Both the position numbers and the translations under genes were made by a program. Below, piece after piece: positions 19,958-43,841 of a DNA stretch of 64,000 nucleotides (positions within the stretch are counted from its first letter, which is position 1; each line of letters begins with the position of its first letter). The notes beneath the pieces are model-generated. The model was not told where the DNA came from. It worked only from the letters and a program-made list of their open reading frames with translations, and made no database searches. The stretch lies in the IMG/VR virus record IMGVR_UViG_2974621193_000001, positions 1-64,000 of that record; one strand, given 5' to 3'. Source of the DNA: a virus. Taxonomy: Duplodnaviria; Caudoviricetes.

Positions 19958-20030
19958 TGACCTATAGCTCAATTGGCAGAGCATCCGACTGTTAATCGGA
20001 TGGTTGTAGGTTCAAGTCCTACTAGGTCAG
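19958..20030 (+). tRNA. trnN: tRNA-Asn (GTT)
   Basis: Acceptor TGACCTA/TAGGTCA, D-arm GCTC/GAGC, anticodon stem TCCGA/TCGGA with GTT at 19991-19993, T-arm GTAGG-TTCAAGT-CCTAC; CCA not encoded. Confidence 0.95.
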
Positions 20031-20070
20031 CGCAGTACAGATGTCAACTAAGACCAGTGAAAGGGTCACC

Positions 20071-20664
20071 ATGACACACGCAGGAATCCCGACCGCCACG
20101 CAGGACACCAGCGACTTCGACAATCGTCCCGAGGTCGAGCGCGCCAACCAGGCGGCTGTCGCCGCCGGGGAGAAGATCGAAGAGAAGCAGTTCGTCGATT
20201 ACTTCGCCGCGCCGCTCCCGGTTCGCTGGTACCTGCCCGACGGCGTCCAGTACTTCGAGTACCAGGAACTCCGCGAGGGCGGCAAGTCGGCTTACGAGAA
20301 GCTGACCAACAAGGACATCCGCGTTCAGCGGTCCACCGGCGACGCTCGCCTCTCGGTCGATCCCGCGATCCAGCGCCAGTCGCTGATCCGCCTGTCGGTC
20401 ACCGACGTGCACCTCCTGCAGAAGGACTCGGGCGGCACGCCGCAGCCGATGCCCTTCAACAAGGACCGCCCCGGCAAGTTCTGGGAGAACCTGTTCACGT
20501 TCTTCCCCGCCGCCCTCATCGACAAACTCCACCAGGAGATCGTGAAGGCCAACGCCTGGCTGGCGGCTGACGACGACGTGGAAGCGCTGAAGGAAGAGCG
20601 CGACCGCCTCGACGAGCGGATCGAGCGCGCCGAAGAGGAGCAGGCAAAAAAGCTCTCCTCGTAG
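20071..20664 (+). CDS. Tail assembly chaperone (short form)
   Basis: Position; SD GAAAGGG before ATG 20071; ends at slippery site. Confidence 0.85.
   Translation: MTHAGIPTATQDTSDFDNRPEVERANQAAVAAGEKIEEKQFVDYFAAPLPVRWYLPDGVQYFEYQELREGGKSAYEKLTNKDIRVQRSTGDARLSVDPAIQRQSLIRLSVTDVHLLQKDSGGTPQPMPFNKDRPGKFWENLFTFFPAALIDKLHQEIVKANAWLAADDDVEALKEERDRLDERIERAEEEQAKKLSS
20646..20652 (+). other. -1 programmed frameshift site A AAA AAG
   Basis: Canonical heptamer in chaperone frame; -1 frame stays open to 20939. Confidence 0.88.
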
Positions 20665-41997: not shown

Positions 41998-43200
41998 CTA
42001 CTCCTTGATGAGCCGCTTCACAACCTTGGGCTTCGGCTCGCCGATACTCTCCTGGACGGACGACCGAAGCCTTGACTTCTGGGCTGCATTCAGGGCGTTC
42101 CCGTTCAGGAGCTTGTCGATTTCACTGTTGTTGATCTTGCCGAGTGATGCGAAGAGGTTGTCGCCGATGATCTCCCGTACCGTAGCGGGGTCATAAGACT
42201 TCCTGCGGGACGACTTGAACGTGACATGGAAGTCGTCAGTGTCGTACTCGATCTCATCTGAAGCCATAGCATCTTCAAGCAACTTCTCCATCACTTCTTC
42301 CATCGCATACTTGATAGCCTTCTGCGCACCCTCGAGTTCAGAGTAACGCTTCGCCATCTCGTTTCGATCGCCAGCCAGGGCCATGACGCCGCCCGCTTGA
42401 ACATTCTTCACGAGCGTCGGGCACGTAGCTTTCACTACGCAGAACTGGCATTCGGAGTTGAGCGTGCGCTTGCCGGGGGCTGGCTCGGCAATGATACGCT
42501 CGGCAACCTTGCGAACGTACTTCCAGGTGGCTACGTTGTCATCTCGGGTGAACTTCACCTCGACCGGATCGTACCGGAGCTGATCGAAGCACACCCAAAT
42601 CTCGTCCGCGTTGAGCTCGAACCCAAGCTCCTTGGCGATCTCCGCCTTGGCCAGCATGATCGCCAGTCCGTACAGTCGACCCTGCGCCTTCTGTCGCAGT
42701 GCCTGCGGAGTGAGGTGCTGGCGCCAGGTCTTGTAGTCCACGACGCGGACGATAGTCTTGCCGTCCTCTTCGAACATGTCGAGCCGGTCGAAGATGAAGG
42801 TGTACGGAACCTCGCCGATAGAGGTCTTGATGGTCACCCGAATCTTGCGCTCGACCATGAGCACCTGCACCTTATCGAGATCGGTGCGCCCAAACCAGCG
42901 TTCGAGCATGTCGATGCCGTCGTTGTACAGATCATCCTTGGTGTCTGGAATGCGCATGAACTGCTTCATAAACTCTTGCTTGAAATAAGCAACGAGTACA
43001 TTCCAGTCCATGTCTCGGGTCTTGTCCAGGTAAACTTCCTGAACGATACGCTCTAGAGCGTCATGCACGGCGGTACCCAGCTTAGCTGGCTCCGAGCTAC
43101 CTCCTGGACTCGGCGTGCGCTCGACCATCTCGGCGTGGTATCGAAAGGTACAACCCTCGAACACCTGGATGGACGATGCCGAGATGGTTCTGAGTTCCAC
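41998..43200 (-). CDS. Cas4/RecB-like PD-(D/E)xK exonuclease
   Basis: ISASS...C, GTAVH, FDRLD, VVDYKT, Q..LY, CQFC...CP; GTG start overlapping WhiB stop. Confidence 0.9.
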   Translation of the reverse strand: MELRTISASSIQVFEGCTFRYHAEMVERTPSPGGSSEPAKLGTAVHDALERIVQEVYLDKTRDMDWNVLVAYFKQEFMKQFMRIPDTKDDLYNDGIDMLERWFGRTDLDKVQVLMVERKIRVTIKTSIGEVPYTFIFDRLDMFEEDGKTIVRVVDYKTWRQHLTPQALRQKAQGRLYGLAIMLAKAEIAKELGFELNADEIWVCFDQLRYDPVEVKFTRDDNVATWKYVRKVAERIIAEPAPGKRTLNSECQFCVVKATCPTLVKNVQAGGVMALAGDRNEMAKRYSELEGAQKAIKYAMEEVMEKLLEDAMASDEIEYDTDDFHVTFKSSRRKSYDPATVREIIGDNLFASLGKINNSEIDKLLNGNALNAAQKSRLRSSVQESIGEPKPKVVKRLIKE

Positions 43201-43613
43201 TACTTGCTTCCCCTCTTCGTTGTTATGCCGCCCCAAATACCGTCGGTCGAACCAGTGCGCTCGCGATAGTCAAGGCACTCGAGTCTTACTGGGCAGCTCA
43301 TGCATATCTTCTTCGCACGGTTGGCGCGGGCGGCTTGGCCCCGGCCAGGGAAGAAGGCGTCAGGATCGTGATACCCTACACAGAGGGCGCGGCGGGTCCA
43401 CTCTTCGGGGGCGAGACTGAAGGAGGCTTCGGGGGCGTCGGCGCCTGGGTCTCCGTACTCTTCTCCTTCTCCGCAGTCGCAAGGCTCTCCGGTTCGGTCG
43501 GGTCGAAGAGCGAGGGCTGCGCAGATTCCGTTGCACCTAAAGGGCGGCGCCCCCCGGACATCTCGAGCTCGAAAGCCGTCGTCGGCTCTTCGCCATCGAG
43601 CAGTTCGTCGGCG
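43200..43613 (-). CDS. whiB: WhiB-family transcription factor (no in-frame ATG/GTG/TTG; 5' end uncertain)
   Basis: Manual translation: EWTRRALCVGYHDPDAFFPGRGQAARANRAKKICMSCPVRLECLDYRERTGSTDGIWGGITTKRGSK-stop; frame open from TGA at 43614-43616. Confidence 0.85.
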   Translation of the reverse strand, partial: RRRTARWRRADDGFRARDVRGAPPFRCNGICAALALRPDRTGEPCDCGEGEEYGDPGADAPEASFSLAPEEWTRRALCVGYHDPDAFFPGRGQAARANRAKKICMSCPVRLECLDYRERTGSTDGIWGGITTKRGSK

Positions 43614-43798
43614 TCAGCTTGCGCATCAGCCTTGGCCTTCTGCTCCGACTGGAATGCCGTCTGCTGGAGGTGCTGCTCGAAGGCGGTCTGTGTCGGGGCT
43701 TTGGCTCGGAAGTCTTGGAACCCTTCCTGATCCATGCCACCGCGTACCGGGTGCAACTCGTTGGGACCAGCGGGCATTTTGAACTGCGGTTCAGTCAC
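43376..43798 (-). CDS. Hypothetical disordered protein (140 aa) with QPSLF motif; possible N-terminus of a WhiB fusion
   Basis: GTG with SD AAGGAG downstream of promoter; overlaps WhiB frame. Confidence 0.6.
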   Translation of the reverse strand: MTEPQFKMPAGPNELHPVRGGMDQEGFQDFRAKAPTQTAFEQHLQQTAFQSEQKAKADAQADADELLDGEEPTTAFELEMSGGRRPLGATESAQPSLFDPTEPESLATAEKEKSTETQAPTPPKPPSVSPPKSGPAAPSV

Positions 43799-43841
43799 TG
43801 CGTTCTCCTTGTAGGTGGTGCTAGGCGTGTTCCGATACGTT

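Follow-up and report, generated by a model that had tools for sequence, protein, structure and literature searches.

Programmed -1 ribosomal frameshifting in phages is textbook knowledge for the tail assembly chaperones, and this kind of recoding is also known for dnaX and for transposases. Here we describe a locus in the genome of a Gordonia phage (Caudoviricetes), IMG/VR record IMGVR_UViG_2974621193_000001 (75,687 bp, with terminal repeats), in which a complete WhiB protein with no start codon of its own is encoded in the -1 frame of an upstream gene, and we conclude that this locus is very likely a programmed -1 ribosomal frameshift cassette. Full-text searches of the literature turned up no account of a frameshift-made WhiB. 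All coordinates are positions in the 64,000-nucleotide (nt) stretch of the record that was analyzed (the window), and the whole WhiB locus lies on its minus strand.

The lambda-type G/GT tail chaperones share with this locus a second open reading frame (ORF) that has no start and lies in the -1 frame, an in-phase X_XXY_YYZ heptamer, and a short and a long protein with a common N terminus; strong RNA structure is not known to be required for the G/GT frameshift. The WhiB locus differs in yielding a regulator rather than a structural helper, in its heptamers (C_CCT_TTA or C_CCA_AAA), and in having a shifted part that carries a whole recognizable domain and a zero-frame tail that looks unconstrained. 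The OrfA/OrfAB genes of the IS3 family of insertion sequence (IS) elements (IS911, IS3, and IS150) are likewise overlapping ORFs with a -1 heptamer shift and a functional domain made only as part of a fusion, and members of this family often carry an upstream Shine-Dalgarno-like element. Most IS elements use A_AAA_AAG with a downstream hairpin or pseudoknot, whereas no conserved downstream structure of either kind was found at the WhiB locus, which also lacks a transposase or DDE domain (its only Pfam match is WhiB) and mobile-element ends. In Escherichia coli dnaX, which makes tau and gamma, a -1 heptamer shift is combined with an upstream Shine-Dalgarno-like stimulator to give two products in a fixed ratio. 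There, however, the shift truncates the protein, while at the WhiB locus it would append a further domain; in dnaX, moreover, a strong stem-loop lies downstream, and the Shine-Dalgarno spacing is ~10 nt, compared to 5 nt here.

Two further comparisons concern other WhiB proteins and another actinophage gene. Stand-alone WhiB (Wbl) proteins of phages and bacteria, of which most mycobacteriophages have an annotated example, share with this locus the Pfam domain, the four cysteines, and GIWGG, and some bacterial homologs likewise have cysteine-rich N-terminal extensions, there within a single ORF. The stand-alone proteins have their own start codons, whereas the protein described here has no start of its own and would instead carry a leader from the upstream ORF (ORF1) and an R-C-x-G-x-C ... 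C-x-C-G-E-G module. In mycobacteriophage Bxb1, the primase is encoded by two overlapping ORFs (gp50 and gp51), and a 2025 paper suspects that a frameshift or a bypass close to a rare UUA codon connects them (PMC12646305). Both cases are actinophage genes split over two overlapping ORFs, but the proteins are different, and the mechanism is undefined in Bxb1, whereas the WhiB locus has a canonical heptamer that is conserved across genera.

A WhiB frame without a start codon

The locus is made up of the following features, all on the minus strand.

43805..43810, minus strand: Shine-Dalgarno sequence AAGGAG of ORF1, 6 nt before the GTG, as read from the sequence
43376..43798, minus strand: ORF1 (zero frame), from GTG at 43798 to TAG at 43378-43376, 140 amino acids (aa)
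43550..43555, minus strand: G-rich Shine-Dalgarno-like stretch GGGGGG (G6), 5 nt upstream of the heptamer; a possible stimulator, not the shift site
43538..43544, minus strand: slippery heptamer C_CCT_TTA, the proposed -1 shift site, in phase and conserved
43200..43538, minus strand: -1-frame coding segment, 112 codons from AGG at 43538-43536, then TAG at 43202-43200
43521..43535, minus strand: first cysteine pair, C-N-G-I-C; the Arg preceding it is the first -1-frame codon
43464..43481, minus strand: second cysteine pair, C-D-C-G-E-G
43215..43400, minus strand: WhiB (Wbl) domain (PF02467), C-x25-C-x2-C-x5-C plus GIWGG

An initial annotation of this DNA, made from the sequence alone, had pointed to a complete WhiB without a start codon in the -1 frame of ORF 43798-43376, with an overlap of about 240 nt between the two frames. 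Our analysis bore this out. The -1 frame is open from 43613, right after a TGA at 43616-43614, to the TAG at 43202-43200, and it overlaps ORF1 for 238 nt (43613-43376). Residues 47-108 of the 112-aa -1 segment match Pfam PF02467 at 61.6 bits, against a gathering cutoff of 23.6 (E = 1.1e-16), and the cluster cysteines (C53, C79, C82, and C88 of that segment) are invariant across 14 lineages, as are G100, W102, and G104 of the motif that reads GIWGG in the window. By all of the WhiB sequence features that we tested, the -1-frame product is a true WhiB. From the TGA at 43616-43614 up to the first cysteine of WhiB, the frame has no ATG, GTG, or TTG; its first ATG, at 43301, lies past two of the four cluster cysteines, and the sole near-cognate start codon between the heptamer and the first WhiB cysteine is an ATC at 43526-43524.

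We propose that translation begins at GTG 43798 and proceeds through a leader of 87 codons, and that a fraction of the ribosomes then slip one base back at C_CCT_TTA (43544-43538), with the CCU and UUA tRNAs re-pairing with CCC and UUU. Shifted ribosomes would read the four-cysteine module and the complete WhiB up to the TAG at 43202-43200, which would give a 199-aa fusion (87 + 112) of leader, four-cysteine module, and WhiB, while unshifted ribosomes would stop at the TAG at 43378-43376 and give the 140-aa protein. WhiB would very probably be made only by way of this -1 slip at C CCT TTA in the upstream gene.

Conservation of the layout and of the slippery heptamer

The region matches 81 phage records, of which 75 are from Gordonia phages and 6 from Tsukamurella phages, with Gordonia phage Diabla as the best nucleotide match (97.5% identity). 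At least 66 independently sequenced phage records show the two-frame layout across 80% or more of the 801-nt query, with identities that range from below 80% to 97.5%, and at the protein level the layout extends to about 80 records from several genera. These numbers bear directly on a sequencing or assembly indel that split one continuous gene, an option raised in the initial annotation. Such an error would fit the G6 homopolymer that adjoins the frame change, but it would have to recur in about 80 independently sequenced genomes, and the comparison of orthologous loci that had been suggested as a check turned up no relative with a single continuous ORF. We consider an assembly error effectively excluded. 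Among the best 150 of 18,837 HMMER WhiB matches, none combined leader, four-cysteine module, and WhiB in a single ORF; one long candidate (203 aa) was rejected, as the motifs were missing. A word-indexed homolog search with the -1 product gave no match, which we take to be a limit of the tool, the domain being a clear WhiB.

The heptamer CCCTTTA at 43544-43538 lies directly 3' of G6, and the zero frame reads it as C_CCT_TTA (X_XXY_YYZ), with CCT as Pro86 and TTA as Leu87. CCCTTTA is in phase and invariant in five genera, namely in Montyvirus, Woesvirus, the Tsukamurella phages TIN2/TIN4, Getseptimavirus (represented by GTE7, GMA7, and Amore2), and Demosthenesvirus (represented by Katyusha), and the flanking bases vary. 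At the same position, about 20 further lineages have C_CCA_AAA, among them the Rhodococcus phages Perlina, ReqiDocB7, and Mbo2, the Gordonia phages RobinSparkles/Orchid, GMA3, GordTnk2/Gmala1, Jumbo, and Camerico, and nine or ten viral contigs from metagenomes. Every lineage examined has an in-phase X_XXY_YYZ heptamer at the equivalent place. The Pro codon changes its third base in step with the codon that follows (CCT-TTA or CCA-AAA), and this joint change keeps the heptamer pattern. The zero-frame residue before the Pro can be R, L, A, T, D, N, or V, but the third base of its codon is always C, a constancy that re-pairing of tRNA-Pro on CCC would explain and that coding in neither frame does.

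Within the window, CCCTTTA occurs twice in 128 kb of sequence (both strands counted), and TTA is the rarest Leu codon (18 of 1,585 Leu codons). Both CCCTTTA and CCCAAAA are among the heptamers that give >0.1% -1 frameshifting without stimulators in E. coli, and motif rules have been described for IS3-type frameshift heptamers (PMC4066793). Of the 80 IMG/VR relatives closest to the family alignment, 11 have CxGxC before WhiB, and all 11 carry the heptamer directly upstream of it; the seven other loci that we inspected are ordinary WhiB genes with their own starts, except for one fragment. A pattern scan for further CCCTTTA lineages returned only three metagenomic matches, all by chance and without WhiB, and a genome scan with the CCCAAAA pattern returned chance matches outside Actinobacteria and one Mycobacteriales fragment without WhiB. 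A candidate third form of the heptamer, G_GGA_AAA, gave no match in IMG/VR when sought in combination with the downstream motif of the family.

The same conservation bears on transcriptional slippage as an alternative, in which RNA polymerase would add or drop a base at G6 or at the heptamer to produce an mRNA subpopulation with fused frames. Some bacterial and IS genes do use transcriptional slippage, and it would yield an identical fusion protein here. However, known cases need ~6-9 or more identical A or T bases, whereas the conserved runs at this locus are only 3-4 bases long and G6 is not conserved, and the pattern that is conserved, with in-phase XXX and YYY triplets and a covarying Pro third base, fits tRNA re-pairing. 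We regard slippage of the polymerase as having very little chance of being the explanation.

Selection in the -1 frame and the point of entry

In an alignment of the -1 segment from the 14 lineages (41-88% identity), R-C-x-G-x-C is invariant right after the heptamer and is followed by an invariant C-x-C-G-E-G and then by the WhiB cysteines and GIWGG. At the 9 invariant residues of this extension, the codons used by 17 representatives differ only synonymously in the -1 frame (TGC or TGT, any of the four GGN codons, and GAA or GAG), and each difference changes the zero-frame residue (A/V, E/A/V/G, and K/R). For 11 sequences from Montyvirus and Woesvirus that align without gaps, we also counted variable columns by ORF1 codon position.

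Upstream of the heptamer: 18 at first, 17 at second, and 61 at third positions; normal coding in the ORF1 frame
Overlap: 12 at first, 21 at second, and 15 at third positions; the maximum falls at second positions of ORF1 codons, corresponding to third positions of WhiB codons
WhiB-only part: 8 at first, 28 at second, and 5 at third positions; coding in the WhiB frame

Variable columns at the third codon position of the -1 frame amount to 21/53 in the overlap and 28/58 beyond it, and the codon periodicity switches at the heptamer. Three points are established by the sequence comparisons: the layout in two frames, the conservation of an in-phase heptamer, and selection at the protein level in the -1 frame from the heptamer on.

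This pattern of selection also speaks to whether a full WhiB is made at all, as opposed to the frame being a decaying remnant or encoding only the stub that is found in some annotations:

43200..43301, minus strand: 33-aa stub from an internal ATG, annotated as "WhiB family transcription factor" in some records

Several public annotations list only this stub, or nothing, but the four cluster cysteines and GIWGG are intact in lineages at only 41-46% identity, and substitutions concentrate at WhiB third codon positions (28/58, versus 8 and 5 at the other two). The stub, with its start at ATG 43301, lacks two of the four cysteines. A pseudogene is effectively excluded, and we find it most improbable that no full WhiB is made.

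The start of the selected -1-frame region can be placed closely. A TGA in the -1 frame stands directly before the heptamer in GordTnk2, Gmala1, and RobinSparkles and one codon earlier in GMA3 and Jumbo (five representatives of four distinct lineages), and the WhiB frame of Camerico is devoid of ATG, GTG, and TTG throughout. Stops beside the heptamer, together with the lack of a start in Camerico, place entry into the frame at the heptamer or within one following codon.

A -1 shift elsewhere in the overlap is hard to reconcile with this. The initial annotation had named as candidate sites the G6 tract (43555-43550) and two copies of GCCCCCGAAG (43436-43427 and 43412-43403), all of which lie where both frames are open in the window, and G-runs can be slippery. 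Yet G6 is not kept in relatives: Chelms and PokyPuppy have G5C in its place, and other genera have GGTGG or GGAGG. Both GCCCCCGAAG copies change within Montyvirus and Woesvirus, differing in PokyPuppy and GalacticEye. The latter also lie downstream of the selected -1-frame motifs, and a shift there would skip the invariant CxGxC and CxCGEG, while entry further upstream is forbidden by the stop before the heptamer in GordTnk2, Gmala1, RobinSparkles, GMA3, and Jumbo. We judge a shift at any of these other sites to be very improbable, and phase variation, which had been proposed as well, finds no conserved homopolymer on which to act.

Translation of WhiB from a noncanonical start of its own was also considered, either at the ATC at 43526-43524 behind AGGTG, as in the initial annotation, or at the AGG after the heptamer with the G-run as its Shine-Dalgarno sequence. 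In favor of such a start are the Shine-Dalgarno-like stretch that precedes the region in all lineages, the position of the ATC as the sole near-cognate codon in the window's -1 frame, and the example of IS911, which combines a frameshift with an AUU-started OrfB. In relatives, however, the ATC codon is GTC (GTE7, GMA3, GordTnk2, and Jumbo), ATA (RobinSparkles), or GCG (Camerico), and AGGTG becomes AGATG in Woes-like phages and Katyusha. The residues R, C, and G before the ATC, which would be left untranslated from that start, are invariant with synonymous codon changes, and a noncanonical start leaves the two covarying heptamer forms unexplained. The ATC start is effectively excluded, and independent initiation as a whole is highly unlikely. 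A programmed -1 shift from the upstream ORF that gives two products, which was also among the options in the initial annotation, is strongly supported by the comparative evidence.

Apart from its cysteines, the four-cysteine module varies between groups. The CCCAAAA phages GMA3, GordTnk2, Jumbo, Camerico, and RobinSparkles have a conserved aromatic insert, G(L/I)(Y/F)(W/H/Y)(W/P/F) ... (D/E)(F/L)P, in the linker between the cysteine pairs. This insert is missing from the Montyvirus group, so the module has a long and a short form.

The leader and the zero-frame product

Codons 1-87 of ORF1 form a conserved leader upstream of the shift. Its length is 78-87 aa in phages of the CCCTTTA group and 32-51 aa in those of the CCCAAAA group, and the motifs NP(V/I/L) and F.DF(R/S/T)P are common to all lineages, which links leader and WhiB throughout the family, as expected for one protein. 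A plausible Shine-Dalgarno sequence precedes the ORF1 start in each relative examined. ORF1 matches phrog_6890 at E = 7e-67 and has no family match in Pfam. Its homologs are labeled "endonuclease" in RefSeq copies of the relatives and in phrog_6890, a label that looks unfounded, as ORF1 has no Pfam match and no visible nuclease motif. Three short TAF(E/Q) repeats (TQTAFEQ, QQTAFQS, and TTAFELE) are present in the CCCTTTA-group leader at 43580-43700 (minus strand) and are missing from the shorter CCCAAAA-group leaders.

The zero-frame tail of the 140-aa product is Pro/Ser/Glu-rich and poorly conserved, and the position of the zero-frame stop differs between genera. At 43505-43519 (minus strand) the tail reads QPSLF, which resembles a beta-clamp-binding motif. 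We rejected this candidate, as the Q is E or D in TIN2/TIN4 and the motif is absent in GTE7 and Katyusha; QPSLF is probably a shadow of the conserved -1-frame residues AALAL.

Possible stimulators

A GGNGG-type stretch is found ~2-9 nt upstream of the heptamer in 14 of 14 lineages tested, though these lineages are not independent. When all positions of a locus are ranked by predicted energy of pairing with the anti-Shine-Dalgarno sequence at the 16S 3' end, this stretch has a median rank within the top 3% (range, 1-15%). In the window this stretch is G6, and this G-run 5 nt upstream, along with slow decoding of UUA, may help the shift. Any such role of the stimulators is inferred from the sequences compared here, as are the slip, how efficient it would be, and what the two products would do.

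Several observations weigh against a programmed shift at the heptamer, or at least lend it no support. Shine-Dalgarno stimulation of -1 shifts, as in dnaX, works best at ~10 nt, and the shorter spacing of the G-run here, only 5-8 nt from the heptamer, makes its role uncertain. Neither single-sequence folds nor RNAalifold revealed a conserved downstream hairpin or pseudoknot. The single-sequence folds were mostly no better than shuffled sequences (z from +1.5 to -2.1), with only RobinSparkles (z -2.06) and Perlina (z -1.54) somewhat better, and RNAalifold returned three downstream pairs with no covariation, a result that could miss lineage-specific structures or pseudoknots. In pairwise comparisons, amino acid conservation in the overlap is similar in both frames, suggesting that the zero-frame tail may also carry a function. 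Katyusha, Perlina, RobinSparkles, and others have in-frame starts further downstream, from which a shorter stand-alone WhiB could also arise in those phages. Finally, an AlphaFold2 model of the -1 segment built on a 12-sequence alignment was poor (pLDDT 51, with residues 1-43 below 50); it is uninformative, neither supporting nor refuting a folded four-cysteine module.

Neighboring genes and other features of the window

The locus is flanked by a DNA methylase and a Cas4-family exonuclease, the latter with the following start.

43198..43200, minus strand: GTG at which annotations of relatives begin the Cas4-family exonuclease, overlapping the WhiB stop

As the initial annotation had noted, the end of WhiB overlaps the start of the exonuclease, with the WhiB stop and the GTG sharing the sequence TAGTG (43202-43198), an arrangement consistent with translation of the WhiB frame. 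The overlap also suggests that translation of the exonuclease is coupled to that of the WhiB frame, in which case it could be influenced by the efficiency of the frameshift.

Elsewhere in the window, the tail assembly chaperone pair is made up of an ORF at 20026-20664 (plus strand) and an overlapping -1-frame ORF that runs to 20939, upstream of a 3,342-aa tape measure gene. The classical heptamer A_AAA_AAG at 20646-20652 (plus strand) is in phase (GCA AAA AAG) and is the expected G/GT-type frameshift site of this phage. That the phage has such a site in its tail genes is a further point in favor of -1 frameshifting at the WhiB locus.

Discussion

In the public records that we examined, the WhiB of this locus is represented by the 33-aa stub, by an internally started gene, or by nothing. 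The stub, which retains two of the four cysteines and corresponds to phrog_11832, is annotated in Diabla (gp44), Breezic (gp41), and GalacticEye (gp42), and WhiB is unannotated in Eggsie, PokyPuppy, Linetti, GTE7, GMA7, Amore2, and Camerico. If a programmed frameshift does operate here, the number of misannotated genomes among the deposited phages of Gordonia, Tsukamurella, and Rhodococcus may be around 100 or higher.

Against the background of the known frameshift systems, what is new is a transcription regulator that would be reached only by recoding, together with an added four-cysteine module; the combination of leader, four-cysteine module, and WhiB would be a previously unrecognized protein architecture. 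By analogy with other WhiB proteins, we presume that the fusion acts as an iron-sulfur regulator and binds the principal sigma factor of the host.

Recoding is strictly retained in every lineage found, with no in-frame fusion seen, which raises the idea that the frameshift is retained in its own right as a means of regulation. In this view, it would determine the ratio between a leader-only protein and a long regulator consisting of leader, zinc-type four-cysteine module, and iron-sulfur WhiB domain, with the two sharing a partner and acting against or alongside each other in the takeover of host transcription, and the ratio would perhaps be tuned via the availability of the rare tRNA-Leu(UAA) or via translation load. 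We think this role rather unlikely, if not negligibly so. For the programmed frameshift as such, the locus would provide a deeply conserved natural cassette for studying frameshifting in high-GC Actinobacteria, including the role of the rare UUA codon, and would allow one to ask what makes a fixed ratio of two products necessary for a phage regulator.

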